Below are positions 1 to 64,000 of a DNA stretch of 64,000 bases, one piece after another. How positions within the stretch are numbered: position 1 is the first letter of the stretch; the number at the start of each line of letters is the position of its first letter. The translations under genes were made by a program, and so were the position numbers. A model generated the notes under the pieces. It was not told the origin of the DNA, ran no database searches, and worked only from the letters and a program-made list of their open reading frames with translations. Origin of the DNA: an uncultured Actinomycetota bacterium (GTDB lineage Bacteria > Actinomycetota > Acidimicrobiia > Spongiisociales > UBA4744); NCBI GenBank assembly GCA_963707435.1, contig CAVPPF010000005.1:70832-134831 (forward strand), in the 5' to 3' direction.

Positions 1-499
1 TGGCATCGGAGATCGCCGCCCGGATGTTGCGAGGCGGAAACCGCTTGGGATCCATATCGAGATCGCGCACGCACATCGTGACCAGACGCAAGGAGTCGGC
101 ATCGTCGTAGATCGTGAACGAGGACCGGTACCCGAGCCGGGGGGCTTCCCGCCGCAGAATTCGGGCACAGGCACTGTGGAAGGTCGACACCCACATGGCC
201 CGCACCGCACCGCCGACCAGTCGCTCGACACGCTCCTTCATCTCGTTGGCAGCCTTGTTCGTGAAGGTGATCGCCAGGATCGCGTGGGGCGGAACCCCGA
301 GGTCCCGGATCAGGTGCGCAATCCGGTAGGTCAGGACCCGGGTCTTGCCGGACCCTGCCCCGGCAACAACCAGCACGGGCCCCTCGGTAGCGGCCACCGC
401 CTCCCGCTGGACGGGGTTCAGCGAGTCGAACAGCGGGGACTCGGCCGGATCGACCTCAGCCGCGAACAACGCGTCGTCGGAGGAAGCGAAGGATTGCAT
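1..499 (-). CDS. pcrA: ATP-dependent DNA helicase (UvrD/PcrA family), N-terminal part; the gene continues past the window start
   Basis: Reverse-strand translation from the ATG at 499 gives MQSFASSDDALFAAEVDPAESPLFDSLNPVQREAVAATEGPVLVVAGAGSGKTRVLTYRIAHLI...AITFTNKAANEMKERV, with the UvrD Walker A (GAGSGKT) and motif Ia. It runs off position 1. Confidence 0.75.
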   Translation of the reverse strand, partial: MQSFASSDDALFAAEVDPAESPLFDSLNPVQREAVAATEGPVLVVAGAGSGKTRVLTYRIAHLIRDLGVPPHAILAITFTNKAANEMKERVERLVGGAVRAMWVSTFHSACARILRREAPRLGYRSSFTIYDDADSLRLVTMCVRDLDMDPKRFPPRNIRAAISDA

Positions 500-562
500 G
501 GGTCGATGGTACCCGCCCGCACCGACCTAATCACACGTGTGTAACCGCCGGGCCGGGGCCGC

Positions 563-1441
563 TCAGCGAATGGTGACTTCGACCGACCCGTCCGGCCGCA
601 CAACCCGGCCATCTGCGTCCTCTTCGCCCTCTTCGGGAGCCGAGGTTCTGATCGTGAAGCAGAAGCGGCTGCCCGTCGGAAACCGATGCTCGTACCAGAG
701 ATCGCCACCCATCGCTCGAGCCAGCCGCAGTGCAATGGGGAGACCCAGGCCGATCCCCTTGTCGGATCGCGCGTCGCCCTTGGAAAGCTGCTCGAAGTGC
801 GTGAATACCCGGTCGACATCGGCCTCGGGTATTCCGGGTCCGTTGTCGGACACCACGACGAGGTAGAACTCACCGTACGGACTGCCCTCGACGAGAACCT
901 GGTCACCGCCGTACTTGTGGGCGTTCTCCACCAGGTTGCGCAGAACCTGCTGGACCCTTCGCTGGTCGGCATACACAGAGACCCCACCGGGTATCGCCAC
1001 CGAAGCTTCCCGAGCGGATCCGGGTGGGAGAATCGCATTCGTGACGTCGTGGGCGACGTCGGACAGGTCGAACACTTCCAGATCGAGACGAAGCCGGCCC
1101 GCCTCCAGCCGGGGAATCACGAGAACGTCCTCAACCAGCTCGGAGAGATGCACGGCCTGCTTGTTGATGATCGTCAGAAACTCGTCGACTTCCTCGCTTG
1201 GCAGGTTCTTCCACGACTCGAGGAGCGTGTCCGTGAAACCGGCAATGGAGGTCAGCGGCGTGCGGAGCTCGTGGCTGACCATCGAGACGAACTCGTTCTT
1301 CATCCGCCTGGCCCGATCGGCCGATTGGGTGGCGAACTTCTCTCGCCCCCGGGCCGCCCGCACAGCACGGAGCGCAGCCACGACGGCCGCGACGGCGACC
1401 ACTACGGCGCTTCCACCTATCAGTTCAGGCAGGTGCTCCAT
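563..1441 (-). CDS. Membrane-anchored sensor histidine kinase (single N-terminal TM, HisKA + HATPase_c, no sensor domain)
   Basis: 292 aa. H-box SHELRTPLTSI; N/G boxes NLVENAHKYG, DNGPGIP, GIGLGL. One hydrophobic N-terminal segment. Confidence 0.85.
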   Translation of the reverse strand: MEHLPELIGGSAVVVAVAAVVAALRAVRAARGREKFATQSADRARRMKNEFVSMVSHELRTPLTSIAGFTDTLLESWKNLPSEEVDEFLTIINKQAVHLSELVEDVLVIPRLEAGRLRLDLEVFDLSDVAHDVTNAILPPGSAREASVAIPGGVSVYADQRRVQQVLRNLVENAHKYGGDQVLVEGSPYGEFYLVVVSDNGPGIPEADVDRVFTHFEQLSKGDARSDKGIGLGLPIALRLARAMGGDLWYEHRFPTGSRFCFTIRTSAPEEGEEDADGRVVRPDGSVEVTIR

Positions 1442-1566
1442 TGTGTTTCAGCCTCCAGCTGAGCGGCATGTTTGCCGCACACTGAGCTATCGACACGAAT
1501 CCCGGCGAGGTTGAGGCCTTCCGGATCGGTCTGAGGCCTTGCCGGTCGCGATGGCGGCCGGCTCGA

Positions 1567-2565
1567 TTAGGAATCTGGATCGCCGTAGAGCGAAGACAGG
1601 CTGAGCCGGGCTTCCTGCTCCAGGAGTTTCTGGTGGTGGTAGGCAGAATCGACCACTGCCGCCAGTGGGAACTCCACCATCCGCAACGTGCGGGCTACCT
1701 GGGGAGAGAAGACCCCGGGCCGTCGCGAACCGATGGCCAGGATCCCCAGCACCTGCCCCCGGGAACGCAAGCCCATCGCGAAGAACGAAGGCCATCCTCC
1801 GGCCGAGTCGGTCTCGGAAAACTCCTCGGTTCCCGACCGCCATACGCCCAGTTCCTCGGGGCTCACCGAAATCGATGCGAGCTGCTCGAGATGGCCGGCT
1901 GCCAGGGCACGGAAATGGTCGAATTCGGCCCGGGAAAGGGCCGTATCCATGCGAATCGCCAGGCGCCGTTCGGCGGCCAGTGCTATCCCGGCCAGGTCGT
2001 AGTCCACGAACCGGCGAAGGATCAACAGCGACTCCTGCACGGTCGTCGGCAGGTCCATGGCACGTGTCGCCATCGTGACGATGTCGTTCACGATGGTCGC
2101 GTCGAACAGTTTGCGGTCGAGCAGTTCTGTCACCCGGGCGAGGACGTCGACCTGATCGAGCTGCTGTGGGTCGACCTCGCCCGTCGTCAACTCGGAAAGG
2201 GCCCGGGTGGCCCGGGCACTTCGAATCGCCGCCAGCAGTTCCTCACCAAGCGATTCCTTGGTCAGATACCCGTCCGCTCCCGACTTCTCGGACCAATACC
2301 GGTCTTCGGCAGAGTCGAGCGCCGTCAAGATCAGGATGGGAATGTGGGCAACCGAGAAGTCTTCTTTGATCAGCCGGCATGCGACGTACCCGCTCATGCG
2401 CGGCATCTTGATGTCCAGGAGCACCATGTCCGGCGGCTCTGAGTAGAACTTCTGGATGGCCTCGATCCCGTCTTCGGCGATGACTACCTCGTAGCCCGCA
2501 TTCCGGAGAAGCGAACTCACCGCAGCCCTGACGACCGGGCTGTCGTCGGCGATCAGGATCCTCAC
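1567..2565 (-). CDS. Response regulator with REC domain plus C-terminal GAF-like domain and no DNA-binding output
   Basis: 332 aa. N-terminal MRILIADDSPVVR...VLLDIKMP (CheY-like receiver). C-terminal roughly 200 aa resembles GAF. The 4-bp ATGA overlap with the upstream CheA-like gene implies an operon. Confidence 0.8.
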   Translation of the reverse strand: MRILIADDSPVVRAAVSSLLRNAGYEVVIAEDGIEAIQKFYSEPPDMVLLDIKMPRMSGYVACRLIKEDFSVAHIPILILTALDSAEDRYWSEKSGADGYLTKESLGEELLAAIRSARATRALSELTTGEVDPQQLDQVDVLARVTELLDRKLFDATIVNDIVTMATRAMDLPTTVQESLLILRRFVDYDLAGIALAAERRLAIRMDTALSRAEFDHFRALAAGHLEQLASISVSPEELGVWRSGTEEFSETDSAGGWPSFFAMGLRSRGQVLGILAIGSRRPGVFSPQVARTLRMVEFPLAAVVDSAYHHQKLLEQEARLSLSSLYGDPDS

Positions 2566-4748
2566 CGGTTCACCTCCGTGCGGTCGGCGGGATCAAACCC
2601 GGTGCGCATCTCGAGCAGCGAGTTGAGCGTGGTAGCCAGCAAGCCCTGCCGCAGGTCGGCCTTGTCGAGATAGGCGTTCACGCCGGCCGCCCATGCCCTG
2701 GCCTGGTCCTCTTCGTCGGCAACGGCCGACACCATCACGACCGGGAGCGCCGGGAGGATGTTCCGAACCGACCGAACGAGGTCGACACCGTCAGAACCCG
2801 GCATGGCGTAGTCGACGACCAGAGCATCGAACTGCTCCGACTGGAGCTTGGCCAGACCTTCATCGGCGTCGCCTGCTACCAGGGTCTCAAATCCCAGGCC
2901 GGTGAGCACCGACCCGACCAGCTGGCGCGCCCCCGCCGAATCGTCCACGACGAGAACCCGCGGCCTCGAAACAACCGAATCCGGAACGGAACGCACCCGG
3001 TCACCCAACCGGTTGGGTTCGACGACCACGACGACCTCTCCCCCGCCGAGCACAGCCGCACCGGTCAGATGGGGGGTTCCCGCCAGCACCGGACCGAGGC
3101 CCTTGACGGCGACTTGCCGCCGGCCGACGATCCTGGGCACCGTCACGGCGATCAAACCCGATCGGGTGGCCAGCACGAGAACCTCGTTGACGGGCTCCGT
3201 CTCGGGAAGCCCGACTGCGGTGGCGAAGGATGAGATCGGCAACCGTTGTCCCTGGTGGATCAACTCCATCCGTTCCTTGCCCGGCCGCACCTCAGCACCC
3301 GACAAGGCGAACGCAGCGACGACGGCAGCACCCGGAATGCCCCACTGGCGGTCCTCGGCCGAAAGGAGCAGCATGTCCTGCAGAGCCCACGACGCCGGGA
3401 GCGTCAGCATGACCGACGTGCCGTGCCCCGGACGGGAATCCACGGTGATTCCACCGTTCAGCATTTCCGCGGTCTCGGCGACCAGCGCCAGGCCGGCCCC
3501 ATCGCCGCTCAGATCGGTCGCTTCGATCGACGTCGAGAATCCGCCCCCGTACAGCAAGCGGGTCAGCTCGCCTTCCCCGGGCGTCTCGTCGCCGGTCAGC
3601 AATCCCCGTTCCCAGGCAGAATCGCGAACGGCATCCCAATCGATGCCGCAACCGTCGTCCTCGACGGTGATCACCAGATTGCTCTTGGACACCTGAGCGC
3701 GCACGGCCAGCAACGCCGTGGCCGATTTGCCTGCTGCTTCCCGCACTTCGGGTGTCTCAATACCGTGATCGATGGCGTTCACGAGCAGGTGCCGCAGCGG
3801 TTCGCGGAGATGCTCGATGATCTGACGATCGACCTCGACTTCGTCACCGGCGAGCTCAAAGCGGATCTGTTTTCCGGTTCGACGGCACAGGTAGCGAACG
3901 AATTGATGGAACGTATCGGTGATCTCGGAGAGCGGCGCGGCTACCAGCTGGAGTGCACGCATCTGGAGATCTTCGACGGCCAGATCGAGGGTTTCCACAG
4001 CGGATTCCCAGCTGGTGGCCAGCGAAGCTACCTCACGGGGATTGCTCGAAACGGCGAAGCGCAGCGCGTGGACCGCCCCCGCCAGGGCGGCGGCGTCGAG
4101 TCGAACCTCCGCAGCCCGGTTGATCAACCGGTACAGCCTCGTTGTTTCAACCCGGGTGGCCGGCCCAACCAGACCGGACTCAACCGAAGACAGCAACCCA
4201 CCGAGATCGAGCAGCTCGGGGCCCGCCATTTCGGGAACGGGTCGAGCGGGTGCCGGAGAAGGCGGGGCCGGGGGTGGCACAGGGTTCGCTTCTGCCGGTG
4301 CGGGAGCCGGCGTCGAGCGGACCGGCGGCGCCGGTTCCGGTTCGTCCGCAACTCCCAGGAAGCTCTCCAGCGCCGTCACCGCTGATTGCAGTCCGGCCGG
4401 CCGGCCGTTGGTGCCTTCGTCCATCGCCCCGAGGAACTCGGCCGCGACGGCCTTCAACACCTCGCCGAGTTCCGGGCTCGGCGCCAGGACACCCTCCGAG
4501 ATATCTCGCCATGCTGCCTCCAGCACCCGGGCCGCTTCGCCCATCTCAACGAACCCCATCACACGTGAGGAGCCCTTGATGGTGTGGGCGTCCCGGAACA
4601 AGGTTGAGAACCGGTCGGTATCCAATCGCCCGGCCATCATGGCAGCGGATCCTTCAATCAGATTTGCGGAGCGTTGCGCGACCTCATCGCGGAAAATCGC
4701 CAGGAGCTCTGCATCGTTGCCCAACTCCACGTTGAACCTCTTCTCCAT
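2562..4748 (-). CDS. CheA-like hybrid histidine kinase: Hpt(P1), Pro-rich linker, dimerization, HATPase(P4), CheW-like(P5), C-terminal REC
   Basis: 728 aa. Hpt motif DAHTIKGSSRVMGF. N-box HLLVNAIDHGIE, G1 DDGCGID, G2 GDGAGLA. A CheW-like segment. C-terminal receiver VLVVDDSAGAR...VVDYAMPG. Confidence 0.85.
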   Translation of the reverse strand: MEKRFNVELGNDAELLAIFRDEVAQRSANLIEGSAAMMAGRLDTDRFSTLFRDAHTIKGSSRVMGFVEMGEAARVLEAAWRDISEGVLAPSPELGEVLKAVAAEFLGAMDEGTNGRPAGLQSAVTALESFLGVADEPEPAPPVRSTPAPAPAEANPVPPPAPPSPAPARPVPEMAGPELLDLGGLLSSVESGLVGPATRVETTRLYRLINRAAEVRLDAAALAGAVHALRFAVSSNPREVASLATSWESAVETLDLAVEDLQMRALQLVAAPLSEITDTFHQFVRYLCRRTGKQIRFELAGDEVEVDRQIIEHLREPLRHLLVNAIDHGIETPEVREAAGKSATALLAVRAQVSKSNLVITVEDDGCGIDWDAVRDSAWERGLLTGDETPGEGELTRLLYGGGFSTSIEATDLSGDGAGLALVAETAEMLNGGITVDSRPGHGTSVMLTLPASWALQDMLLLSAEDRQWGIPGAAVVAAFALSGAEVRPGKERMELIHQGQRLPISSFATAVGLPETEPVNEVLVLATRSGLIAVTVPRIVGRRQVAVKGLGPVLAGTPHLTGAAVLGGGEVVVVVEPNRLGDRVRSVPDSVVSRPRVLVVDDSAGARQLVGSVLTGLGFETLVAGDADEGLAKLQSEQFDALVVDYAMPGSDGVDLVRSVRNILPALPVVMVSAVADEEDQARAWAAGVNAYLDKADLRQGLLATTLNSLLEMRTGFDPADRTEVNR

Positions 4749-4806
4749 TGAGCACTCGTCGTTTCAGGAATATCGGACGACCAGCACGGCGACTTGAGAG
4801 AAAGGA

Positions 4807-6378
4807 CTATTCCCACTCAATGGTGGCGGGAGGCTTCGAGGAGACGTCGTAGGCGACGCGGTTGATACCCGTGACCTCGTTGATCACCCGGCTCGAGATG
4901 CGTTCGAGCACCTCATGCGGCAACCGCGCCCAGTCGGCCGTCATCGCGTCCTCGCTCGTCACGGCCCGAACGATCAGCGGATAGGCGTACGTGCGCCCGT
5001 CGCCTTGCACGCCGACCGTCTTGACCGCCGGAAGGACCGCGAACGACTGCCAGAGTTCCCGATAGAGGCCTGCCCGGCGGACCTCCTCGAGAACGATGGT
5101 GTCGGCCGCCGCCAGAATCTCGAGACGTTCCCGGGTGACCTCTCCGATGATGCGCACGGCCAGACCCGGTCCGGGAAACGGCTGCCGCCAGACGATCTCC
5201 TCCGGCAGACCCAACTCGGTTCCGATCGCTCGCACCTCGTCTTTGAAGAGGTCCCGGAGCGGTTCAACCAGCTCGAACGTCATGTCCTCAGGCAGGCCGC
5301 CCACGTTGTGATGGCTCTTGATCCTGGCCGCATCCTTGGTGCCCGACTCGATGATGTCCGGATAGAGGGTCCCCTGCACCAGGAAGTTGGTATCGGTCAG
5401 ATCGACCGCCACCTCTTCGAACACGCGAATGAATGTCTCCCCGATGATCTTCCGTTTCGATTCCGGATCGGTGACACCGGACAATGCATCCAGGAAGCGG
5501 TCTTGAGCCTTGACGTGGATCAGATTGATGCGGAACGTTCGCCGGAACGTCTCCTCGACTTGTTCGGCTTCACCGGCGCGCAGGAGCCCATGATCGATGA
5601 ACACGCACGTCAACTGGTCGCCGACTGCATGGTGAACCAGGGCGGCCGCTACCGACGAGTCGACTCCTCCCGACAGTCCACACATCACTTTTTCGGACCC
5701 GACCTGGCTCCTGATGGCATCAACCGACTGCTCGATGATCGAATGGTGGGTCCAGTTGGGCCGCAGCTGGCACACATCGAAGAGAAAACGCTTGATGATC
5801 TCGGTCCCGCGCGGCGTATGACCAACTTCGGGGTGGAACTGAACCCCGTAACGGCGCCCCTCGCGATGCTCCATCGCAGCTACCGGCGATCCGGACGTGG
5901 ACGCAACGACCCGGAACCCAGGAGGTGCCTCCACCACGGCGTCCCCGTGGCTCATCCACACGTCCTGGGTTTCGGGGAGTTCGGCAAACAGGCCGGAACC
6001 GTCCGCGACGGTGAGCTCCGTCTTGCCGTATTCGGCACTTCCCGTCCGGGCAACCCGGCCACCAAGCCCGTGGGCGAGCAACTGGTGGCCGTAGCAGATC
6101 CCCAGGATCGGCACGTCGAGATCGAAGATGTCCGGATCAATCTCGTAGGCGTCGTCGGCGTAGACCGAGGCAGGCCCTCCCGAGAGAATCAGACCGGACG
6201 GATTGAGGGCCATCACCTCTGCAGCCGTGATGTCCCGGGGAACGATCTCCGAGAGGACATGCGCTTCGCGGACCCGCCGGGCGATCAACTGGGCGTACTG
6301 GGCACCGAGATCGACGACCAGGACGCGATCGAAATCCCCCGTCGACGCCTGACCGAAGGAACCTTCCCGGGTGGTCAC
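4807..6378 (-). CDS. guaA: GMP synthase (glutamine-hydrolyzing)
   Basis: 523 aa. GATase-1 motif GICYGHQ, PP-loop SGGVDSSV, and a conserved C-terminal dimerization domain ending IEWE. Confidence 0.97.
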
Positions 6379-6384
6379 GCCCGC

Positions 6385-7542
6385 CTACCCCATGCCGACG
6401 CGCTGGGAACGCTGCAACGACTTGCCCTCGGTCTGCAGCGACGGGGCAATCATCACTTCGGCCTTCTGAAACTCTTTGACGTCTGCGTAGCCGGTGGTTG
6501 CCATCGACATCCGCAAGCCGCCGAAGAGGTTCCGCCGGCCGTCGTTCTCGTGCGCCGGACCGACCAGGATCTCCTCGAGCGTGCCGAGATCACCCACCTC
6601 GACGCGAGTTCCCCGCGGCAGGGTCGGGTGGAAAGTTGCCATGCCCCAATGAACTCCGCGGCCGGGAGCCTCGGTCGCCGCCGCCAGCGGTGATCCGACC
6701 ATGACGGCATCGGCACCGCAGGCAATAGCTTTGGCAACGTCACCGCCCGTGCGCATGCCACCGTCGGCGATGACGTGCACGTACCGGCCGGTCTCGTCGA
6801 GATACCGGATCCGCGCTCCGGCGGCGTCGGCAATGGCCGTTGCCTGAGGAACCCCCACCCCGAGCACGGCGCGAGTCGTGCAGGCGGCGCCCGGACCCAC
6901 ACCGACGAGGACGCCAACGGCCCCGGTCCGCATCAGGTGGAGGGCGGTCGAGTAGGAGGCACAACCTCCCACGATCACGGGCAGTTCAAACCCGGAAATG
7001 AACTCCTTGAGGTTGAGCGGCTCCGCCCGGGTCGATACGTGCTCGGCCGAGACAACCGTGCCCTGCACGACCAGGATGTCGAGGCCGGCCTTCACCGTGA
7101 GCGGGGCAAGGGACGCAGTTCGCTGCGGCGTCAGACTGCCTGCAACAACAACACCGCTCTCCTTGATCTCTCCGATTCGCCGTTCGATCAATCCTTCTTT
7201 GACGGGCTCCAGGTAGATCTCCTGCATGCGCAGGGTGGCCTTGTCCGCAGGGAGTTCCGCTATCTCCTCGAAGTAGGGCTCCGGGTTCTCGTACCGGGTC
7301 CAGAGCCCTTCCAGGTTGAGCACACCCAGACCACCCAGCTTCCCGATCGCAATCGCCGTTGCCGGGCTGATGGCCGAGTCCATGGCGGAACCCAGCATGG
7401 GCAGGCGAAACCGGAAGGCGTCCATCTGCCATGCAATGTCAACATCGTCGGGATCGCGCGTCCGCCGGCTGGGAACGATGGCGATATCGTCGAAGCCGAA
7501 TGCCTGGCGACCCGACTTGCCGATGCCGATGTCAATTTCCAT
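6385..7542 (-). CDS. guaB3: IMP dehydrogenase-family protein (GuaB3-like, no CBS pair)
   Basis: 385 aa TIM-barrel IMPDH/GMPR-family sequence (GGCASYSTALHL, IADGGMRTGGDVAKA). It lies immediately upstream of guaA, as in mycobacteria. Confidence 0.8.
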   Translation of the reverse strand: MEIDIGIGKSGRQAFGFDDIAIVPSRRTRDPDDVDIAWQMDAFRFRLPMLGSAMDSAISPATAIAIGKLGGLGVLNLEGLWTRYENPEPYFEEIAELPADKATLRMQEIYLEPVKEGLIERRIGEIKESGVVVAGSLTPQRTASLAPLTVKAGLDILVVQGTVVSAEHVSTRAEPLNLKEFISGFELPVIVGGCASYSTALHLMRTGAVGVLVGVGPGAACTTRAVLGVGVPQATAIADAAGARIRYLDETGRYVHVIADGGMRTGGDVAKAIACGADAVMVGSPLAAATEAPGRGVHWGMATFHPTLPRGTRVEVGDLGTLEEILVGPAHENDGRRNLFGGLRMSMATTGYADVKEFQKAEVMIAPSLQTEGKSLQRSQRVGMG

Positions 7543-7600
7543 CAGAATCCTCCGCCAATCAGGAAACCCTCACGGTAGCTCGCCCAGCTCGCAGTGCTAA

Positions 7601-7645
7601 GTCGTCAGACATCAGTTTTCGGTTGTCAGCTATCAATCATCAGAG
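7601..7645. repeat. Heptamer-periodic array (NTCAGNN)x6 in the guaB3 upstream spacer
   Basis: gtcagac atcagtt ttcggtt gtcagct atcaatc atcagag shows 7-nt periodicity. Confidence 0.5.
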
Positions 7646-7720
7646 TCGAACGCCGATTTGCGGGCTGCACAAGCCACACCGACACCTGCGAACGAAGCGC
7701 GAAGCTACGGAAGACTGAAA

Positions 7721-7775
7721 ACTCGAGTACCGAGTACCGAGTACCGAATACTGAGTACTGAATACTGAGTACTCT
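7721..7775. repeat. Tandem heptamer repeat (GAGTACY)x7; contains repeated AGTACT/GGTACC palindromes
   Basis: actcgagtac cgagtac cgagtac cgaatac tgagtac tgaatac tgagtac tc. It ends 8 nt before the CPBP start codon. Confidence 0.9.
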
Positions 7776-7783
7776 TCTCTCCC

Positions 7784-8545
7784 GTGAACCTGCCACCGCT
7801 CTCCGCCCCGCCATCGCATCGCTGGCGTTTCAGCGACTTCCTGTTCGTCTGGTTGGCCGGGTTCGTCGCATCCCTGATAGGCACCGCCGTCGGGATCGCC
7901 CTCGGTATGGGAGGGTCGCTCGAGGACCTGGCAGTCAGCGTTCCGCCCGAGTTGTTGTTCTGGGTAGCCCTCCCTGCCCAGTTCTTCGGGATGTTGCTGG
8001 CCCTGGCCTGGGTGAGTCAGCGGCGCGGATCGGGCAGTTTCGCAACGGATTTCGGATTCTCGATCCGGGTGCAGGACATCGGGTTCCTGTTCCTCGGCAT
8101 GCTGCTGCTTCTGGTCCTGGCGTTCGCGTTGACGCCGCTGGCAGAGCTGTTCGGAGTCGACGAAACCCCTCAAGTAACGACCGAGGCCATCGCCCAGGTC
8201 GTGGATCTCCCGACCCAACTCATGATCGTGCTGGCGGTGGCGATTGTCACGCCGATCGTTGAAGAGTTGACGTTTCGCGGTTTGCTCCTCCGCTTTCTGG
8301 AGGAACGGATGAACCCCCGGCGGGCCCTCGTGATCTCAGCAGTGCTCTTCGGGGCGTTCCACGTGCTGGGGACGAGCGGAACGGCCGGAGCCATCATCGC
8401 CATGGTGCAGACGTTTCTGGCCGGGCTGGTTCTGGCGTACGTGACCCAGAAGTCGGGCAAGCTGAGCCGCGCCATCTTCGTCCACGCCGGCTTCAATCTG
8501 ATCACGATTCTCGTGCTCTTCTTCGTCCCGGATCTGGGGATCTGA
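7784..8545 (+). CDS. CPBP-family intramembrane metalloprotease (CAAX protease / Abi)
   Basis: 253 aa, multi-TM. Conserved EELTFRG and FGAFHV motifs. Confidence 0.8.
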   Translation: MNLPPLSAPPSHRWRFSDFLFVWLAGFVASLIGTAVGIALGMGGSLEDLAVSVPPELLFWVALPAQFFGMLLALAWVSQRRGSGSFATDFGFSIRVQDIGFLFLGMLLLLVLAFALTPLAELFGVDETPQVTTEAIAQVVDLPTQLMIVLAVAIVTPIVEELTFRGLLLRFLEERMNPRRALVISAVLFGAFHVLGTSGTAGAIIAMVQTFLAGLVLAYVTQKSGKLSRAIFVHAGFNLITILVLFFVPDLGI

Positions 8546-8586
8546 GATCGGGCCCTCCCGGCCCTTTGACCTCGAAAGCTGCGCTG

Positions 8587-9594
8587 CTAGGCCCCGCCGG
8601 CAGGGCGGGCATCGAAGCCGAGTTTCTTCCGCACGGAGGCCATCTCGCCCTCCGCCCGCATGCGAGCGTCGAGGGCTCCCTTGACCATGATGTGAGTGAC
8701 TTCTTCATCGTCCAGCGCTTTGAAACCCGTCCGGATCGAACTGAGACCCTCGACCACGGCTTCAGCGACGGTCACCTTGAAGTGTCCATACTGCGTTTCG
8801 TGGTATTCCTCGACCAGGTTGTCGACGGACCGGCCCGTGAAGAGGGAGAGAATATCCAGGAGGTTCGAGATCCCGGGCTTCTTGTCCCGGTCGTAGACGA
8901 TCTCATTACCCGAGTCCGTGACGGCCGATTTGAACCGCTTGCGGATCGTGTCCGGCTCGTCGAGCAAGAGAACCCGGCTGCTCGGGTCTTCGTCGGATTT
9001 CGACATCTTGGACGTCGGATCCTTCAACGACATGATGCGGGCGCCGACCTCCGGCGTGATCTGCTCGGGAAGGGGAAACTCTGCTCCAAATCGGGAATTG
9101 AATCGTTCGGCCAGGTCACGCGCCAGTTCGAGGTGCTGGGTCTGGTCGTCACCGACCGGAACGGCGTGGGCCTTGTGGACCAGGATGTCGGCGGCCATCA
9201 GCACCGGGTAGGCGTACAGACCGAGGTTCCTTCCGGCCTTGTCGGCCTTCTCCTTGAACTGGGTCATTCGATTCAGTGCCCCCAGGGATGTGATCGTGCT
9301 CAGCATCCACGACAGCTCAGCATGCTGAGGGACCTGGCTCTGGAAATACAGCAGCGAACGCCCGGGATCAACCCCGACGGCCAGCAGCAACTTGGCCGTG
9401 TTCAACCGACTCCGGTGAAGTGCCACCGGGTCGTAGGGCACCGTTATCGCGTGCAGGTCAACGACGCAGTAGATCGCGTCGTAGCTCTCCTGGAGCTTCA
9501 CCCAGTTGCGCAGTGCTCCGAGATAGTTGCCGATGTGGATGTCACCGGTCGGCTGAATACCGGAGAACACCGTCTTCTTGTCACTCACCTTCAT
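8587..9594 (-). CDS. trpS: Tryptophan--tRNA ligase
   Basis: MKVSDKKTVFSGIQPTGDIHIGNYLGA (HIGH motif) and KMSKS. Start taken at the ATG at 9594, preceded by GGAGGAG; the longer ORF to 9717 is an upstream extension. Confidence 0.93.
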   Translation of the reverse strand: MKVSDKKTVFSGIQPTGDIHIGNYLGALRNWVKLQESYDAIYCVVDLHAITVPYDPVALHRSRLNTAKLLLAVGVDPGRSLLYFQSQVPQHAELSWMLSTITSLGALNRMTQFKEKADKAGRNLGLYAYPVLMAADILVHKAHAVPVGDDQTQHLELARDLAERFNSRFGAEFPLPEQITPEVGARIMSLKDPTSKMSKSDEDPSSRVLLLDEPDTIRKRFKSAVTDSGNEIVYDRDKKPGISNLLDILSLFTGRSVDNLVEEYHETQYGHFKVTVAEAVVEGLSSIRTGFKALDDEEVTHIMVKGALDARMRAEGEMASVRKKLGFDARPAGGA

Positions 9595-11455: not shown

Positions 11456-12859
11456 ATGACGCCGGATGAGTTTCGACAGCGCGGCCGGGAGATCATCGAC
11501 TGGATCGCCGGCTACATGGAGCGAGTCGAAGACTATCCCGTGCTTGCGCAGGTCAAACCCGGCGACATCCGCGCCGGTTTGCCCGAACATCCGCCCGCTT
11601 CCGGCGAGGACTTCGAACGTGTGGTTGCCGACCTCGACCGGATCGTCATGCCGGGCATCACCCATTGGCAGTCCCCCAGCTTCTTCGCCTACTTCAATGC
11701 CAATGCTTCTGGACCTGCGATCCTCGGGGACCTCGTCTCGTCCGGGCTGGGGGTTCAGGGCATGCTGTGGGCAACCAGTCCGGCCTGTACGGAACTCGAA
11801 ACCCACGTCATGGATTGGCTGGTGGAGATGCTGGAGTTGCCTCCGGCCTTTCTCTCGTCGGGGTCCGGGGGCGGGGTCATCCAGGATTCCGCCTCCAGTG
11901 CGACCCTCACGGCCATCATCGCCGCTCGAGAGGCCGCCACAGCAGGCGCGAGCAACCGTACGGGGGCTCGCGGCGACCTGGTCGCCTACACCTCAAACCA
12001 GGCACACTCGTCGATCGAGAAGGGCATCCGGATAGCCGGGATCGGCGGCGACAACCTCCGTTCGATCGAGGTCGATACGGCGTTCGCCATGGTGCCGGAG
12101 GCGCTGGAGAGGGCCATTGAGGACGACCTGGCTGCCGGCCTTCGACCCTTCTTTGTGTGTGCCACCGTGGGTACCACCTCGTCGACGGCCATTGATCCGG
12201 TCCGTCGAATCGGTGAGATCTGCCGCCAGTATGGGATCTGGTTGCACGTTGATGCGGCGCTGGCCGGGACGGCAGCCCTGCTCCCGGAAATGCGCTGGAT
12301 CCACGACGGCCTCGAACTGGCAGATAGCTACGTATTCAATCCGCACAAGTGGATGCTGACCAACTTCGATTGCACGGCCTTCTATGTAGCCGACCGAATG
12401 CGCCTCATCGGGGCCCTCTCGGTGCTGCCCGAATACCTGCGAAATGAAGCGTCGGCATCCGGGGCGGTGATCGACTACCGGGATTGGCAGATCCCGCTCG
12501 GCCGCCGTTTCCGGGCTCTGAAGCTCTGGTTCGTGATTCGTCACTACGGGGTCGAGGGTCTGCGTGCCTTCGTTGCCGAGCACCTGCGCCTTGCGGAACT
12601 CTTCGCCTCGTGGGTGGAGGCCGATTCCGATTTCGAGTTGGCTGCTCCAGCGCCCATCAATCTCGTCTGTTTCCGCCACACCGGCGGGGACGCGATCAAC
12701 CAGCGCATCATGGACGGCGTCAACGACTCGGGAAGGATCTTCATCACCCACACCCGGCTCGACGGGAAACTCACCCTGCGCATGGCGATCGGTCAGACCC
12801 ACACTTCCGAGCGACACGTCCGGCAAGCCTGGGAACTCATCCAGGAGGCGGCCGGATAG
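11456..12859 (+). CDS. PLP-dependent group II decarboxylase (aromatic-L-amino-acid / tyrosine decarboxylase-like)
   Basis: 467 aa. PLP lysine context SYVFNPHKWMLTNFDC. Matches the DDC/TyrDC family along its whole length. Confidence 0.85.
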   Translation: MTPDEFRQRGREIIDWIAGYMERVEDYPVLAQVKPGDIRAGLPEHPPASGEDFERVVADLDRIVMPGITHWQSPSFFAYFNANASGPAILGDLVSSGLGVQGMLWATSPACTELETHVMDWLVEMLELPPAFLSSGSGGGVIQDSASSATLTAIIAAREAATAGASNRTGARGDLVAYTSNQAHSSIEKGIRIAGIGGDNLRSIEVDTAFAMVPEALERAIEDDLAAGLRPFFVCATVGTTSSTAIDPVRRIGEICRQYGIWLHVDAALAGTAALLPEMRWIHDGLELADSYVFNPHKWMLTNFDCTAFYVADRMRLIGALSVLPEYLRNEASASGAVIDYRDWQIPLGRRFRALKLWFVIRHYGVEGLRAFVAEHLRLAELFASWVEADSDFELAAPAPINLVCFRHTGGDAINQRIMDGVNDSGRIFITHTRLDGKLTLRMAIGQTHTSERHVRQAWELIQEAAG

Positions 12860-13030
12860 GGCCCTACCGGTCCTGGTGAGTTGAGGCGCAGCTGCGGTTG
12901 CGCAAAGCGCGAAATATCACCAAACGGTGCCACAGTTTTCCTCGAACGGCGGAATAGAATCCGCGCGTTCGGCCGACCGGCCGGACACTGTGTACCGGGC
13001 ACCAACCCGGGAATACCGAAGGAAGGCACC

Positions 13031-13114
13031 GTGGCTGCAAAGAAGCCAGCACCCAAGAAGGCCGCTCCCAAGAAGGCGGCCCCCAAACCTGCCGCAAAAC
13101 CCAAGAAGAGGTAA
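13031..13114 (+). CDS. Small basic protein, 27 aa: (M)AAKKPAPKKAAPKKAAPKPAAKPKKR
   Basis: GTG start 5 nt after a strong SD GAAGGAAGG (13017-13025). Stop TAA 13112-13114. Perfect terminator 17 nt downstream. Lys/Ala/Pro repeats resemble actinobacterial HU (HupB) tails. Confidence 0.55.
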   Translation: MAAKKPAPKKAAPKKAAPKPAAKPKKR

Positions 13115-13130
13115 CGCTCTCAATGCCAGC

Positions 13131-13162
13131 GGTGGGGACCCGGATCCGGGTCCCCACCGTTT
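13131..13162 (+). terminator. Rho-independent terminator (perfect palindrome GGTGGGGACCCGGATCCGGGTCCCCACC + GTTTTG)
   Basis: 14-nt arms are exact reverse complements. Followed by a T-run on the plus strand. Confidence 0.65.
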
Positions 13163-13192
13163 TGTCACCGCCGCCGACTCGACCGGCGGCCT

Positions 13193-13774
13193 CTACGGGT
13201 CGATGAGCTCGCCCGGCGGCATGCGGGTCACCGGTGGCTCCAGCCCTACCAGTTGCCTGACCATGTGGGCCGTTGCCCCCCACAAGACCTCTCCCTCGAG
13301 ATCGAAGAACCAGACCTTATGCTGTCGCCACAACTCAAAACGCCAGCCGTCTGCAGCGGCGAAGATATCAACCGGCGGTTCAAGAATCTTGTCGACCTCA
13401 CGCGGGGACGGTTGGAGCTGAGGGACGCTCTTGATCCACCCGACCACGGGAACAACCAGCAGGGAGTACTCGATGGTGTGTATCGCCGGGAGGAACCCGA
13501 CGACGTCGACCAGCGCCGGGACGAGCCCCACTTCCTCTTCAGCCTCCCGCAGCGCCGTCCCCACGGGACCACCGTCACCATCGTCCGGGCGCCCGCCGGG
13601 AAAGGCCAGGTGCCCGGCGTGGGTGGGCATGGTCATAGGTCGCTTCGTGAGAATGATCCGCGTCACACCTCGCTCGTCGTCGTAGAGCGGAACGAGAACG
13701 GCGGCTTGTGGCAATGGACCGGGCGGCGGGGGTTCGGGTTGGATCCCGGGAAAGCGTCTGGAGAATTCGTTCAC
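13193..13774 (-). CDS. NUDIX hydrolase (CoA pyrophosphatase NudL-like)
   Basis: 193 aa. Nudix box GGRPDDGDGGPVGTALREAEEEVGL. Confidence 0.8.
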   Translation of the reverse strand: MNEFSRRFPGIQPEPPPPGPLPQAAVLVPLYDDERGVTRIILTKRPMTMPTHAGHLAFPGGRPDDGDGGPVGTALREAEEEVGLVPALVDVVGFLPAIHTIEYSLLVVPVVGWIKSVPQLQPSPREVDKILEPPVDIFAAADGWRFELWRQHKVWFFDLEGEVLWGATAHMVRQLVGLEPPVTRMPPGELIDP

Positions 13775-14507: not shown

Positions 14508-16154
<1,647 letters not shown>

Positions 16155-28363: not shown

Positions 28364-30190
28364 CTACTCGACCGTCACGCTCTTGGCCAGGTTGCGGGGC
28401 ATGTCGATGTCGTGGCCGAGTTCCTTGGCCACGTGGTAGGCAAGGAGTTGCAGCGGGATAATCGACAGGACCGGGCTGAGGAAATCGACGGTGCGCGGAA
28501 TGCGCAGCACATGGTCGGCGTACTTGGCAACCGCAATGTCGTCCTCGTAGGCAACGGCCACCACGCTGGCACCGCGGGCCTTCACCTCCTGCAAACCGGA
28601 GATCGTTTTGTCGTAGAGATGCGACTGCGTCAGCACGACGACGACCGGCGTACCTTCCGTGATCAAGGCCAGGGTCCCATGCTTCAGCTCCCCGGCGGGC
28701 ATCGCCTCCGAGTGCATGTAGGAGATCTCCTTCAGCTTCAAGGAACCCTCGGTCGCCACGGCATAGTCCAGGCCCCGCCCGATGAAGTAGATATCGTCGA
28801 TTCCGGCTATCCGGCGGGCGATATCGGCTATATCGGCATCCATATCCAGTACCCGCTTTGCTTTCCCGGGCAGACTCCGGAGCTCAGCGGAGAGTTCGGC
28901 CGCCTGCTCAGCAGCAATCGTTCCCCGATCGACGCCCAGACGGAGCGCGAGAAGGTAGGTGCCGATCAACATCGCCGTGTACGCCTTGGTGGAGGCGACC
29001 GCTATCTCCGGACCGGCGCGGGTGTAGAGGATGTCTGCGGCATCACGGCTGAGCGTGCTACCCACCACGTTGGTGATGGCCAGCATGCGGGACCCGAGCT
29101 CTGTTGCGAGACGGGCGGCGGCCAGCGTATCGGCCGTCTCGCCGGACTGACTGATCGCGATCGTCATGGTGCCGGGGAGAATCAACGGATCCCGGTAGCG
29201 CAACTCGTGTGCGTAGTCGATCTCGATCGGGATCCGCAATGCCTTCTCGAGCACATCACGACCGACCAGGCCGGCGTGGTAGGCCGTCCCGCACGCCGTT
29301 ATCCAGATCTTCTCGAGATTCGCCACAAATCCGTCCGGGAAATCGACTCCCTCGAGCACAACGGAGCCGTCCGGCTGCAAACGTCCTCGCAGTGTCTCTT
29401 CGATCACGTCTGGCTGCTCGTAGATCTCTTTCAGCATGAAGTGCGGGTACCCGCCCTTTTCCGCCTGACCGGCGTCCCAGGTCACCTCCATGGGGGCGCG
29501 CTCAACCGGCGTTCCATCGATGGTCTGTACCGTCGCTCCGTCCACGGTGATATCGACCATCTCACCGTCCTCGATCACAAGGACGGAGCGGGTGTAGGGA
29601 AGGATCGCCGGGATGTCGGAAGCCAGGAAGGTCTCCCCCTCACCGAACCCGACGACCAGAGGGCTGATCATCCGGGCGGCGACAATCCGCCCCGGCTCGC
29701 GAGAACTCATGACCACGACCGCATATGCCCCCGTCGCCCGGCCGATAGCCCGGCGGACCGCCTCGAGAAGGTCCCCGTCGTACTCATCGGCCACGAGGTG
29801 CACCAGCACTTCCGTATCGGTATCGGAAAGGAAGCGGTGACCGGCTTCGATCAGAGCTTCTTTGAGCGGGAGGAAGTTCTCGATGATCCCGTTGTGAACG
29901 AGCACGAAATCCCCGGACGGGTCGGTATGCGGGTGAGCGTTCACATCGTTGGGTACCCCGTGGGTAGCCCACCGGGTGTGTCCGATACCGGCCGTTCCGC
30001 CGATCGGTCGGTGCTCGAGCAGTTCGTCGAGACGCTGCATCTTCCCGGCCGCTTTGCGCACCTCAATGCGACCGTTGTCGGCGATCGCGATTCCTGCTGA
30101 GTCGTATCCCCGGTACTCGAGTCGCCGCAGGGACGAAACGAGCAGGTCCTGGGCGTCGCGCGAACCGACGTAACCCACTATGCCGCACAT
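28364..30190 (-). CDS. glmS: Glutamine--fructose-6-phosphate aminotransferase (isomerizing)
   Basis: MCGIVGYVG... with tandem SIS domains, ending VTVE. Start ATG 30190. Confidence 0.96.
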   Translation of the reverse strand: MCGIVGYVGSRDAQDLLVSSLRRLEYRGYDSAGIAIADNGRIEVRKAAGKMQRLDELLEHRPIGGTAGIGHTRWATHGVPNDVNAHPHTDPSGDFVLVHNGIIENFLPLKEALIEAGHRFLSDTDTEVLVHLVADEYDGDLLEAVRRAIGRATGAYAVVVMSSREPGRIVAARMISPLVVGFGEGETFLASDIPAILPYTRSVLVIEDGEMVDITVDGATVQTIDGTPVERAPMEVTWDAGQAEKGGYPHFMLKEIYEQPDVIEETLRGRLQPDGSVVLEGVDFPDGFVANLEKIWITACGTAYHAGLVGRDVLEKALRIPIEIDYAHELRYRDPLILPGTMTIAISQSGETADTLAAARLATELGSRMLAITNVVGSTLSRDAADILYTRAGPEIAVASTKAYTAMLIGTYLLALRLGVDRGTIAAEQAAELSAELRSLPGKAKRVLDMDADIADIARRIAGIDDIYFIGRGLDYAVATEGSLKLKEISYMHSEAMPAGELKHGTLALITEGTPVVVVLTQSHLYDKTISGLQEVKARGASVVAVAYEDDIAVAKYADHVLRIPRTVDFLSPVLSIIPLQLLAYHVAKELGHDIDMPRNLAKSVTVE

Positions 30191-30231
30191 GGCAGTCTCC
30201 TTTGCCTGGTGATGGAGACCGGAAGGAACTA

Positions 30232-30406
30232 CGGGTCCGCGTACGGTCCCGTCCACTCCGATGTGGCCTCTGTCACCGGGGTCACCCCCGGGCTTTGCTC
30301 CACACCGTCACGACCGTGGTCGCCGAGAGGGCATCCGCCGAAACTCGATACTCCCTCTTCCTCGTCACCCGCACCGCCTGTAAAGGGGCGCGGGCCGGGC
30401 GCTGCT
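30232..30406 (-). ncRNA. glmS ribozyme: glmS ribozyme (GlcN6P-activated self-cleaving riboswitch) in the glmS 5' UTR
   Basis: The minus-strand transcript reads ...AGCGCCCGG...GGGUGACGAGGAAGAGGGAGUAUCGAGUUUCGGCGGAUGCCCUCUCGGC...AAGCCCGGGGGUGACCCCGG. This matches the conserved core GACGAGGA-GGAG-UAUCGA-UUUCGGCGGAUGCC-UC-CGGC and the P4 stem of the glmS ribozyme family. Confidence 0.85.
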
Positions 30407-56524: not shown

Positions 56525-57532
56525 CTATCCTGAATATGCGTCGACCTTGGTAATGAACTCGGCCTTCTCTGCATCCGAGAGCCACGTGGCGAGGAATGAG
56601 TTCCTGGCCAACTGAGTTATCTGGCTCTTTGTGAATCCTCCGGTCTCGACCAATTCGAAGAGATTCTCGTTTAGGTAGGCCTGCATGTAAGACGGGTCAT
56701 CGGAATTGATCATCACCCGCATGCCCCTATCGAGCATGGTCTTGATTTCATCGACAGTCAGGCTCCCGGTGACGTATCGATTCGAGACAGGACATACCGT
56801 CAAGGCAAGCCCGCGCGCGTTGATCTCCTCGATGAGTGCCTCGTCCTCAAGGGAGTTCACACCATGGTCGATCCGTTCAACGCCGATCTCATCAAGGGCT
56901 TGCCAGATGTGTTGAATTGAATCGTCTTGGTTCACGTCGCAGTGCATCGTGAGCCGGTATCCCTCTTGACGAGCACGAGCAAAGACCTCCTTGAATTTCG
57001 TAGGGGGATTGCCTCGTTCGTCGGAATCAAGCCCTACCCCAATAATCCACTCCTTGAATGGCAGGGAGGCTTCGAGAGTCTCCATCGCCGACTCGGCCGA
57101 CATATCGCGGAAGAAGCACATGATGAGCTGGGTCCTGACGCCAAGCTTGCTCTCGGCATCTACCTGTGCACGATGGATTCCGGTGACGATAGCTTCGAAA
57201 GGAACGCCCCTCGAGGTGTGCGCCTGGGGATCGAAGAACGGCTCGGCGTAGAGGATGTTCTGTTCGTGAGCCTTGCGGAAGTAGGCCATGGCCAGATCGT
57301 AGAAATCCTGTTCCTTCAGCAAGACCTTCATGCCGTCGTAGTACCCAACGAGAAACGACGTCAGATCGTGGAAGACGTAGCTCGCCTTGACATCTTCAAC
57401 GGTCTCGAAAGGGATCTCCACACCATTGCGCTCGGCCAACTCGAACCTGAGTTCAGGCTCGAGGGTACCCTCCAAATGAAGATGGAGCTCAGCTTTTGGC
57501 AGTCCTTCAACGAACGATCTCATGTCGGTCAC
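56525..57532 (-). CDS. add: Adenosine deaminase
   Basis: 335 aa. LPKAELHLHLEGTL... with HxH and ...MHCDVN...SDDP metal ligands. Lower GC than the neighbouring genes. Confidence 0.92.
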   Translation of the reverse strand: MTDMRSFVEGLPKAELHLHLEGTLEPELRFELAERNGVEIPFETVEDVKASYVFHDLTSFLVGYYDGMKVLLKEQDFYDLAMAYFRKAHEQNILYAEPFFDPQAHTSRGVPFEAIVTGIHRAQVDAESKLGVRTQLIMCFFRDMSAESAMETLEASLPFKEWIIGVGLDSDERGNPPTKFKEVFARARQEGYRLTMHCDVNQDDSIQHIWQALDEIGVERIDHGVNSLEDEALIEEINARGLALTVCPVSNRYVTGSLTVDEIKTMLDRGMRVMINSDDPSYMQAYLNENLFELVETGGFTKSQITQLARNSFLATWLSDAEKAEFITKVDAYSG

Positions 57533-57708
57533 CGACAGTCTCCCTTCCTGGTTACCGTGCCTTCGAGGTTACCACCGCACGAAACCCGAAGGCTCGGGAC
57601 ATTCGTCCGCTCCTTCGGGCTTAACGGCCCTTCAGAACGGCCTAGAGTGCTGACATCATCGAAGCGTAAATGCAGAATTGCTTCGACGCACCGAAGGAGG
57701 GATCAACC

Positions 57709-58995: not shown

Positions 58996-59010
58996 AGGTA
59001 GCTGCTGTCA

Positions 59011-59043
59011 GATGGGGAGGGAATCGCGAGATCCCTCCCCATC
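59011..59043 (+). promoter_or_regulatory. Intercistronic stem-loop (12-bp perfect stem) between the binding-protein and ATPase genes
   Basis: GATGGGGAGGGA-aucgcgaga-UCCCUCCCCAUC. Confidence 0.45.
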
Positions 59044-59077
59044 TCGCACCCCGACAATCATCTAACCTGCTTCAACG

Positions 59078-62534: not shown

Positions 62535-62549
62535 GTACTCAGTACTCAG
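62531..62549. repeat. Short heptamer repeat (ACTGAGT/ACTCAGT) overlapping the permease stop codon
   Basis: ctgagtactcagtactcagg. The TGA stop lies inside the first unit. Confidence 0.7.
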
Positions 62550-62563
62550 GACCTGGCACTTCG

Positions 62564-63505: not shown

Positions 63506-64000
63506 GCCGGCTGGCCTTCCGTTGTTGTTTCGTCCACTCGCCCCATCGTGAACTGGTTGCGGAGCAGCCACTCACCGGATACCGCAAAGATGAAGATGGC
63601 GCCCTGCAGGATGATCACCGTCGAGTCCGGTACTCCGGCGATCTGCAATGCCGACCGGGAGTTGGTGAGCGCCCCGATGAACAGCGCCACCGGTATCACG
63701 GCCGCCGCATTCAGACGGGCCAAAGCTGCAACGATGATGCCGGTGAATCCGAGGCCCAGCTGCAGCGAGCGCGGTTCCATGGCTCCGACGACCCCGTCGA
63801 CCAGAACCGCGCCGGCCAGACCTGCCATCGCTCCCGAGAGCAGGAAGACCGACAGGATCTTCCTCTTCACCCTGATGCCGCCGTACTCTGCAACCCGTGC
63901 CGAGTCGCCGGCAACCCTCACTTCGTACCCCCACCGGGTCGACTTCACCAGCCACCACACCACCAGGGCCACGATGACGGCGATGATCAGACCGATATCC
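63502..64000 (-). CDS. ABC transporter permease, partial; the gene continues past the window end
   Basis: Multi-TM open frame. ...LAGAVLVDGVVGAMEPRSLQLGLGFTGIIVAALARLNAAAVIP... runs to the edge. Confidence 0.8.
   Translation of the reverse strand, partial: DIGLIIAVIVALVVWWLVKSTRWGYEVRVAGDSARVAEYGGIRVKRKILSVFLLSGAMAGLAGAVLVDGVVGAMEPRSLQLGLGFTGIIVAALARLNAAAVIPVALFIGALTNSRSALQIAGVPDSTVIILQGAIFIFAVSGEWLLRNQFTMGRVDETTTEGQPA

Follow-up and report, generated by a model that had tools for sequence, protein, structure and literature searches.

In the current understanding, chemoreceptor arrays deliver their output through CheA kinases, whose activity depends on the docking of receptors and CheW to the P5 domain. 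The locus considered here, three genes within a 64-kb stretch of DNA from an uncultured member of the Acidimicrobiia (the window, whose coordinates are used throughout), encodes a kinase of this type (gene A), a protein that joins a receiver (REC) to a GAF domain (gene B), and a membrane-anchored HisKA kinase (gene C). With canonical CheA (T. maritima 1B3Q, E. coli 6S1K) the product of gene A has in common a homologous P3-P4-P5 core and the HxxKG site of P1, but it lacks P2, carries a C-terminal REC domain, and has no cheW, cheY, mcp, cheR or cheB gene in its neighbourhood.

Closer in build are kinases of the Wsp type or alternative cellular function (ACF) class (WspE-like), which like A run Hpt-(P3)-HATPase_c-CheW-REC without P2 over ~730 aa. 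Two such proteins, P0298 and P0296, are the best relatives of A outside its own family (34-35% identity, 280-285 bits). Systems of this kind resemble the present one also in directing their output to a receiver protein with a non-DNA-binding domain. They differ in that their kinases sit in che clusters, whereas the Acidimicrobiia family has no such genes nearby, and in that the partner receiver bears GGDEF in the Wsp/ACF-like cluster but GAF in the Acidimicrobiia family, which furthermore adds a membrane HisKA kinase.

The Che3 system of R. centenum (PMC3868531, PMC4436063) is likewise built on a CheA-REC hybrid (CheA3) encoded with a second, non-CheA kinase (CheS3); CheA3 modulates another two-component step rather than motor CheY, and controls a non-motility process. 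Unlike the window locus, which has no receptor or adaptation genes nearby, Che3 comprises a methyl-accepting chemotaxis protein (MCP3), two CheW proteins, CheB3, CheR3 and a single-domain CheY3. CheS3 also has REC and PAS domains of its own, whereas C has neither REC nor sensor and is accompanied by the separate REC-GAF protein B, which might supply in trans the REC that C lacks relative to CheS3. For B itself the nearest described structure is a dual sensor histidine kinase (6OAP/6OAQ/6OB8), with which it has the REC-helix-GAF-helix build in common (Foldseek E ~1e-12). In that protein the GAF domain binds bilin and the last helix continues into the kinase, whereas B ends with that helix; the two are 16-18% identical in sequence, and the TM-score reaches only 0.32-0.38 because the domain orientation differs.

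By analogy with these systems, the module would work like a Wsp/ACF or Che3-type alternative-function pathway, while standing outside those systems as defined. No published description of the A family was found in the literature searched on Acidimicrobiia CheA, orphan CheA, actinobacterial ACF hybrids, or the absence of CheA and CheW in non-motile Actinobacteria. What is new here is that A is, on sequence comparison, the invariant core of a monophyletic Acidimicrobiia family that keeps the same guaA/pcrA slot in ~95 loci with a partner set that is clade-specific. The best explanation of the locus, judged about evenly poised between right and wrong, is a CheA-derived phosphorelay without chemoreceptor genes at a housekeeping site, wired in the manner set out below. 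The family is a natural test case of which partners other than CheW and receptors may bind to P5, and of how chemosensory kinases get recruited elsewhere, because its P5 is intact and constrained, it has long resided at a housekeeping locus without nearby receptor or adaptor genes, and its partners are swapped by clade. It further draws attention to a signalling module that spans the class, in uncultured Acidimicrobiia abundant in soil and sediment.

Distribution, synteny and phylogeny of the kinase family

An exhaustive search for relatives of A covered 1.84 billion representatives, and ~95 loci carrying such a relative were gathered from a genome scan, a metagenome scan and exact look-ups. 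Wherever the flanks are long enough, in 8 loci from genomes or assemblies and 80 from metagenomes, among which the identity of A falls to 37-43%, the order is guaB3-guaA-A-(B)-(C)-pcrA. The locus is probably inherited vertically at this housekeeping site between guaB3-guaA and pcrA.

The content of the slot varies. Among the 61 loci that reach pcrA, 40 carry A and C, 16 carry all three genes, four carry A and B, and one carries A alone; a second instance of A alone (P0285) came from a separate look-up. In a neighbour-joining tree of A the family is monophyletic with respect to three outgroup kinases from che clusters, and the partner sets map to clades: a basal group with A and B or with A alone, a grade with all three genes that includes the window, and a large clade with A and C in which C has been lost secondarily once. 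Given these clade-specific partner sets, A is the invariant core, whereas B and C can each be done without in some lineage. The three-gene operon of the original prediction is therefore present in the window, but it is only one clade-specific version of a locus that elsewhere consists of A with C, A with B or A alone, and in which A alone is constant.

An apparent A-C fused open reading frame (ORF) in two loci (L030, L036) proved to be an artefact of ORF extension, a stop codon separating the genes. In a complete Acidimicrobiia chromosome (L006, OZ244166.1) the B slot instead holds ~1.8 kb of short repeats (12000-13770), with recurrent translations of the 'IRLRLWRE' type in several frames and a small DUF559-like ORF (12954-13304, minus strand).

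Scores within the family fade from 732 to ~300 bits over ~55 clusters, below which lies a plateau at 250-290 bits consisting of ChpA-like giants and CheA-REC hybrids of 700-900 aa; members just above this break still adjoin pcrA (P0285). The nearest outgroup, P0298 (35% identity), whose sequence cluster includes Acidovorax sp. YS12 UJB65821.1, belongs to a cluster of MCP, CheB, CheR, CheA-REC, CheY, Hpt-REC-GGDEF and CheW genes. The second, P0296 (34% identity), is found with CheY, REC-CheW, CheR, CheW, CheA-REC and CheB on an 11.4-kb contig for which no MCP is listed. Since the closest relatives below the break sit in che clusters, the origin of the family is placed among Wsp/ACF-like hybrid kinases, whose adjoining receptor and adaptation genes it no longer has. 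The suggestion made from the sequence of the window, that a chemosensory-derived pathway had been repurposed, fits this picture, the closest outside relatives being CheA-REC hybrids in full MCP/CheW/CheR/CheB clusters.

As far as named matches show, the family is confined to uncultured Acidimicrobiia. Its members all come from metagenome-assembled genomes (MAGs) or metagenomes; the named matches are all MAGs (Acidimicrobiia, Actinomycetes bacterium), and no cultured or flagellated species is among them. Database labels of family members ('chemotaxis protein CheA', 'gliding motility regulatory protein', 'PleD', 'PilH') have been given by similarity only, and the first two, applied automatically, could mislead inferences about motility drawn from metagenomes.

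Architecture and conservation of the CheA-type kinase

Gene A (2562..4748, on the minus strand, as are all features of the three genes) encodes a protein of 728 aa in which P1/Hpt, a linker, P3, P4, a P5/CheW-like domain and REC follow one another, as delineated by Pfam, by sequence matches in the PDB, and by AlphaFold2 (AF2) modelling combined with Foldseek. Pfam places Hpt at residues 14-100 (5.9e-11), HATPase_c at 313-452 (5.7e-16), CheW at 459-582 (6.3e-09) and Response_reg at 598-697 (6.3e-20). When PDB sequences were searched with phmmer, residues 254-577 aligned at ~170 bits (171 for the CheA match) to the P3-P4-P5 fragment of T. maritima CheA and to E. coli CheA. The AF2 model, built on 20 orthologs and with a mean pLDDT of 79.6, consists of an Hpt bundle (13-131), a disordered linker (135-199), a hairpin (202-269), the kinase domain, a mostly-beta CheW-like domain and the receiver. 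Its best Foldseek matches are the array-bound CheA P3P4P5 chains 6S1K_A, 8C5V_A and 3JA6_C together with 1B3Q, at target TM-scores (TMt) of 0.62-0.68.

Taken domain by domain, the P1/Hpt helical bundle (residues 14-131, 4356..4709), recognized by Pfam (5.9e-11) and by the AF2 helices over 13-131, presents the phospho-acceptor His55 in the motif DAHTIKG, and H55, T56, K58 and G59 of this HxxKG site are invariant in 20 diverse orthologs, the set used also for P4 and REC below. A Pro-rich disordered linker follows (residues 132-199, 4152..4355), with AF2 pLDDT <50 over 135-199. The P2 docking domain is absent, these same residues 135-199 being disordered, Pro-rich and poorly conserved. The P3 dimerisation hairpin (residues ~200-270, 3939..4151) is formed by AF2 helices 202-232 and 237-269 (pLDDT 63-81); it matches the CheA P3P4 structure 4XIV with a Foldseek TMt of 0.70, and the phmmer alignment starts within helix 2 of P3 in T. 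maritima CheA. Pfam H-kinase_dim was not detected in A, which makes its P3 a divergent one, with a predicted role in dimerisation.

The P4 ATP-binding kinase domain (residues 271-455, 3384..3938; Pfam HATPase_c 5.7e-16) has invariant N, G1 and G2 boxes (H320/N324/H328/G329; D364-D365-G366-G368; S414-G415-G417-G419) and a Foldseek TMt of ~0.82-0.92 to CheA P4 structures. The CheW-like P5 domain (residues 456-586, 2991..3383), with its Pfam CheW match (6.3e-09), aligns to P5 of T. maritima CheA, and the C-terminal receiver (residues 597-716, 2601..2960; Pfam Response_reg 6.3e-20) retains D602, D603, D646, S674 and K696 without exception. By its domains A is a true CheA-type kinase: P1, P3, P4 and P5 are present, P2 is absent and a REC is added. 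The CheA-REC hybrid without P2 that had been read from the sequence is thereby recovered, through four domains by Pfam, P3 by AF2, Foldseek and phmmer, and a linker that is disordered. No equivalog or subfamily model of NCBIfam reaches its cutoff for A, B or C, the CheA equivalog models scoring far under their cutoffs on A (270 vs 950 and 167 vs 793).

Regional conservation of A, measured as mean identity to the window protein among 78 orthologs of <62% identity, is 0.42 for P1, 0.28 for the linker (the lowest value), 0.49 for P3, 0.55 for P4, 0.56 for P5 and 0.60 for REC. Among these distant orthologs P5 is thus conserved as strongly as P4 (56% vs 55%), from which it would follow that P5 is not decaying and still binds some partner, be it a novel one or receptors and CheW whose genes lie at another genomic site.

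The absence of receptor and adaptor genes from the vicinity, and the splitting of A in its Pro-rich linker in some MAGs (L003, P0037, P0038), could be taken as signs that the locus is all that is left, decaying and functionless, of a chemotaxis cluster since lost. This is extremely improbable, and conservation effectively refutes it: no catalytic or acceptor residue varies across orthologs down to ~45% identity, purifying selection acts on every domain, hundreds of metagenomic contigs retain the locus, and the G+C content at third codon positions is normal (0.77-0.79 for genes A, B and C, typical for coding sequence in the window).

Variation in length is found in the same part of A. In the MAGs with a split gene the two ORFs part within the Pro-rich P1-P3 linker (L003 10001-12188; P0037, P0038), leaving a 555-aa product without Hpt in P0037 and P0038, by assembly indel error or real truncation. 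In the basal clade A is longer, 745-1061 aa, and matches in two stretches (L042, L075, L079; P0255-P0279), so that what lies between P1 and P3 is either much longer or has a segment added; in these lineages B is present and C is missing.

Receptor and adaptor genes

Receptor genes were sought with a regular expression for the MCP hairpin-tip motif and with a small MCPsignal hidden Markov model (HMM). Both tests recover MCPs, verified by Pfam, beside the control CheA genes of a gammaproteobacterium, a Hymenobacter and a myxobacterium (L007-L009). Neither gives a match in the window or in 1.2 Mb of the ~95 related loci, with flanks of up to 10 kb. By Pfam, no CheW, CheR, CheB or MCP was found in L013, L014, L096, L097, the ORFs of L003/L005 beyond pcrA, or the window genes scanned; the negative for CheW rests on these Pfam-scanned loci only, a 3-seed CheW HMM being so weak that it gives A's own P5 E ~0.1. 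The original prediction that MCP, CheW, CheR and CheB partners are missing nearby has thus held for MCPs in the window and ~95 loci, and for the other three in the loci scanned by Pfam. A complete che cluster just outside the window would have spoken against it, but none is there in close relatives, in which the DNA beyond pcrA (10-kb flanks) holds MFS_3, transaldolase, fmt and sucCD genes, or a gene for a B12-binding-domain protein followed by sucCD. Locally, then, the module lacks what defines a chemosensory system (MCP, CheW, CheR, CheB).

In the class as a whole, many species have flagella and possess F5 che systems besides the flagellar genes, and Acidimicrobium, Ferrimicrobium, Ferrithrix and Acidithrix have at least one 40H-class chemoreceptor each (PMC10746217 Table S4); the 40H class was paired by the authors with ACF kinases, and only F5 CheA is listed for those cultured Acidimicrobiales (PMC10746217). 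The earlier supposition that the host is presumably non-motile finds no support in a class with so many flagellated members; with flagella and F5 che systems present in many of its species, the genomes that carry A may have MCP and CheW genes at other sites.

From this it is a short step to an A that is a second CheA docking via P5 into arrays encoded elsewhere (the F5 cluster or orphan 40H receptors), with the signal diverted to B and C. Such an auxiliary kinase is possible, if rather doubtful, and it is no more probable that the operon is, in consequence, a remote branch of an ordinary chemosensory system. Docking of this kind would suit a P5 as conserved as P4, a full canonical P3-P4-P5 core that matches array-bound CheA (6S1K, 8C5V, 3JA6), and closest relatives that are ACF/Wsp-like and ChpA-like hybrids; flagellated F5 Acidimicrobiia are moreover common, and the 40H receptor of the cultured ones, of the ACF-paired class, has no listed ACF CheA (PMC10746217). 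It is harder to reconcile with the loci themselves. A never adjoins an MCP in ~95 deeply diverged loci and has no CheW in those scanned by Pfam, whereas the outgroup kinases are always in che clusters; the stable housekeeping neighbourhood suggests independence from the gain and loss of che and flagellar genes; and the named family matches, all of them MAGs, include no cultured flagellated species.

The receiver-GAF protein and the anchored kinase

Gene B (1567..2565) encodes a protein of 332 aa in which REC, a coiled coil, GAF and a C-terminal helix are recognized from Pfam, orthologs, AF2 and Foldseek. The receiver (residues 1-124, 2194..2565) is matched by Pfam at 8.6e-25, and in an alignment of 31 orthologs D7, D8, D51, T81 and K103 are invariant and the motif AEDRYW..KSGADGY is conserved. 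For the GAF domain (residues ~171-297, 1675..2055) the Pfam match is sub-threshold (E=0.005, 17.8 bits vs a cutoff of 22.4, over profile positions 1-124/133), and many B orthologs are annotated GAF, GAF_2 or GAF_3. The AF2 model (pLDDT 86.6) shows REC, a long helix, GAF and a long C-terminal helix, and the top full-length Foldseek matches are the REC-GAF crystal structures 6OAQ/6OAP/6OB8. The model thus points to a GAF fold in the C-terminal half of B, with putative ligand binding. In the ortholog alignment, conservation is highest in the receiver and the terminal motif, and lowest in the GAF core and pocket; the control by a second messenger or a GAF ligand that had been suggested from the sequence is speculative. 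This terminal motif, the near-invariant EQEARxSLSSL, lies in the C-terminal helix (residues 298-332, 1570..1674; AF2 helix 298-327), after which there is no output domain; it is loosely kept in clades without C.

Gene C (563..1441) encodes a HisKA kinase of 292 aa that is anchored by a single helix and has no sensor domain (Pfam HisKA 2.7e-18, HATPase_c 6.2e-24). A membrane anchor is predicted at residues ~9-27 (GGSAVVVAVAAVVAALRAV; 1361..1417) from a hydropathy window read from the sequence. The HisKA domain, for dimerisation and histidine phosphotransfer (DHp; residues 47-115, 1097..1303), identified by Pfam and sequence, contains His57 and E58-x-x-T61 in the H-box SHELRTPL, and the HATPase_c catalytic domain (CA) occupies residues 159-265 (647..967; Pfam 6.2e-24). 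Ahead of the H-box the protein consists only of ~10 residues, a single hydrophobic helix and ~30 residues of charged linker, a layout that is the same in all 71 of the 71 orthologs with a complete 5' end, as is SHELRTPL itself (71/71). Pfam finds no PAS, HAMP or GAF match in C, which lacks the input domain of HisKA sensor kinases, and REC is absent both by Pfam and in the layout of the 71 orthologs. An ExxT motif in the HisKA H-box is associated with bifunctional kinase/phosphatase enzymes. The REC-GAF regulator and the sensor-less membrane kinase foreseen from the sequence are both as described, the former by Pfam for REC and by orthologs, AF2 and Foldseek for GAF, the latter by Pfam HisKA/HATPase_c and the uniform layout of its orthologs.

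The structural matches of B invite the thought that B (REC-GAF-helix) and C (DHp-CA) are two halves of a split REC-GAF-histidine kinase like 6OAQ or CheS3. A would phosphorylate the REC of B, the C-terminal helix of B would toggle C by contact, and C would signal to a distant response regulator. Neither the split nor this wiring is likely. The best full-length structural matches of B are indeed REC-GAF fragments of a dual sensor kinase in which the post-GAF helix runs into DHp; B ends in a long, highly conserved helix without output domain, C has no sensor of its own, and in R. centenum CheA3 phosphorylates the REC domain of the second kinase CheS3 (PMC3868531). B and C are, however, separately dispensable, the large A-C clade being without B and the basal A-B clade without C, and the C-terminal motif of B persists where C is absent. 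In the listed 120 best homologs of B no B-C fusion occurs; almost all are ~320-340 aa long, with no kinase domain in the Pfam column. In C the membrane anchor occupies the place where a fused sensor would attach.

A proposed phosphorelay

The preferred explanation, a CheA-derived phosphorelay without chemoreceptor genes, can be laid out as a series of steps, the direction of every phosphotransfer being inferred from gene order and co-occurrence. A would dimerise through P3, and P4 would phosphorylate His55 of its own Hpt. From P1 the phosphate would pass to Asp51 of B, the CheY-like acceptor; B is proposed for this role because its gene is translationally coupled to that of A and no other receiver stands alone. 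Phosphate may also pass to Asp646 in A's own receiver, which would serve as sink or autoregulator in the way known from other CheA-REC hybrids. C, tethered to the membrane and with an ExxT of the phosphatase type, most likely feeds or drains A's receiver as kinase/phosphatase, an assignment made because that receiver is the only one in the A-C clade. The output would be neither transcriptional nor enzymatic, but would go through the GAF domain and C-terminal helix of B, by protein contact or ligand binding, and the target of B would be a non-motility one. There is precedent in R. centenum Che3 for a CheA-REC hybrid that works with a second histidine kinase and not with motor CheY (PMC3868531, PMC4436063).

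Several observations weigh against this scheme. In the specificity residues of the alpha-1 helix of A's REC, the differences between clades that have C and clades that lack it could not be told apart from the effect of phylogeny. The strong conservation of P5 is exactly the expectation if P5 still docks CheW and receptors, and the CheW negative is weak outside the Pfam-scanned loci, the 3-seed HMM barely detecting A's own P5. Acidimicrobiia, moreover, often have F5 che systems, and the 40H receptors of cultured members are without a listed ACF kinase (PMC10746217).

If complete genomes lack MCP and CheW, the phosphorelay becomes a receptor-independent CheA with a re-purposed P5. That these Acidimicrobiia have no chemoreceptor or CheW at all, A being truly receptor-independent and its P5 re-purposed for another partner, can be put forward tentatively, as a minority prospect. 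In such a case the most attractive candidate partner of P5 is the sensor-less membrane kinase C, standing in for the receptor array, or alternatively the REC-GAF protein. The switching of CheA would then fall to a second histidine kinase and a GAF protein in place of methyl-accepting receptors, and the module, expressed from the guaB3-guaA neighbourhood, might report guanine-nucleotide or energy state.

Gene junctions and genomic neighbourhood

Genes A, B and C are co-oriented, all on the minus strand, and the ORF calls place them exactly at 563-4748, in the order guaB3-guaA upstream, then A-B-C, then pcrA downstream. The GTG start codon of B overlaps the stop codon of A by 4 bp (GTGA). The same overlap occurs in L096 and, by the ORF coordinates called, in L001; in L013 B begins at the last base of A. 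Intergenic gaps measure 125 bp between B and C, 58 bp between guaA and A, and 63 bp between C and pcrA. Both the overlapping or short junctions of co-oriented genes (the 4-bp A/B overlap, the 125-bp B-C gap) and the pcrA and guaA flanks (by Pfam, tblastn and synteny) agree with what had been claimed for the locus. Promoter and terminator scans of 1-8600 gave nothing exceeding shuffled expectation, and co-transcription of A with guaA is possible.

The upstream neighbour guaA (GMP synthase; 4807..6378, minus strand), identified by Pfam GATase and GMP_synt_C, is syntenic across ~95 loci. Beyond it lies a guaB3-family gene related to IMP dehydrogenase (6385..7542, minus strand), which matches NCBIfam TIGR01304 above cutoff (554.8 bits) and belongs to the conserved syntenic flank. 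These two genes stand directly upstream of A in nearly all loci, so that a signalling kinase is tied to guanine-nucleotide genes; the spacer between guaA and A is usually 60-150 bp across loci, and in L014 two genes are inserted there. On the other side, the 5' part of the pcrA/uvrD helicase gene (1..499, minus strand), comprising its first 166 codons, runs off the window start; it is the conserved downstream flank and is 97% identical by tblastn to PcrA of L003, Pfam having been run on the L003 ortholog.

Window genes named by Pfam or NCBIfam in the scan include trpS, citramalate synthase, tsaD, alr, glmS, glmM, truA and an ABC transporter, and named homologs assign the window to the Acidimicrobiia. 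No che or flagellar gene is among the window genes scanned, from which 35-55 kb and a 541-aa ORF at 14508-16133 were left out; by ORF sizes and order, the groEL-sized ORF was taken as groEL and 35-55 kb as ribosomal-protein and elongation-factor operons. The 64 kb contain no tRNA gene, and the sole Rfam match in the window is a full-length glmS ribozyme (RF00234; 30250-30414, minus strand; 90.4 bits, gathering threshold 37), which directly precedes glmS (28364-30256, minus strand). In the last 7.5 kb of the window (56525-63571) the G+C content is lower (0.58 vs ~0.63). This region encodes an adenosine deaminase and a nucleoside ABC transporter of the Bmp/PnrA type, the latter with genes for a binding protein, the ATPase and three BPD_transp_2 permeases, of which one lies on the other strand.

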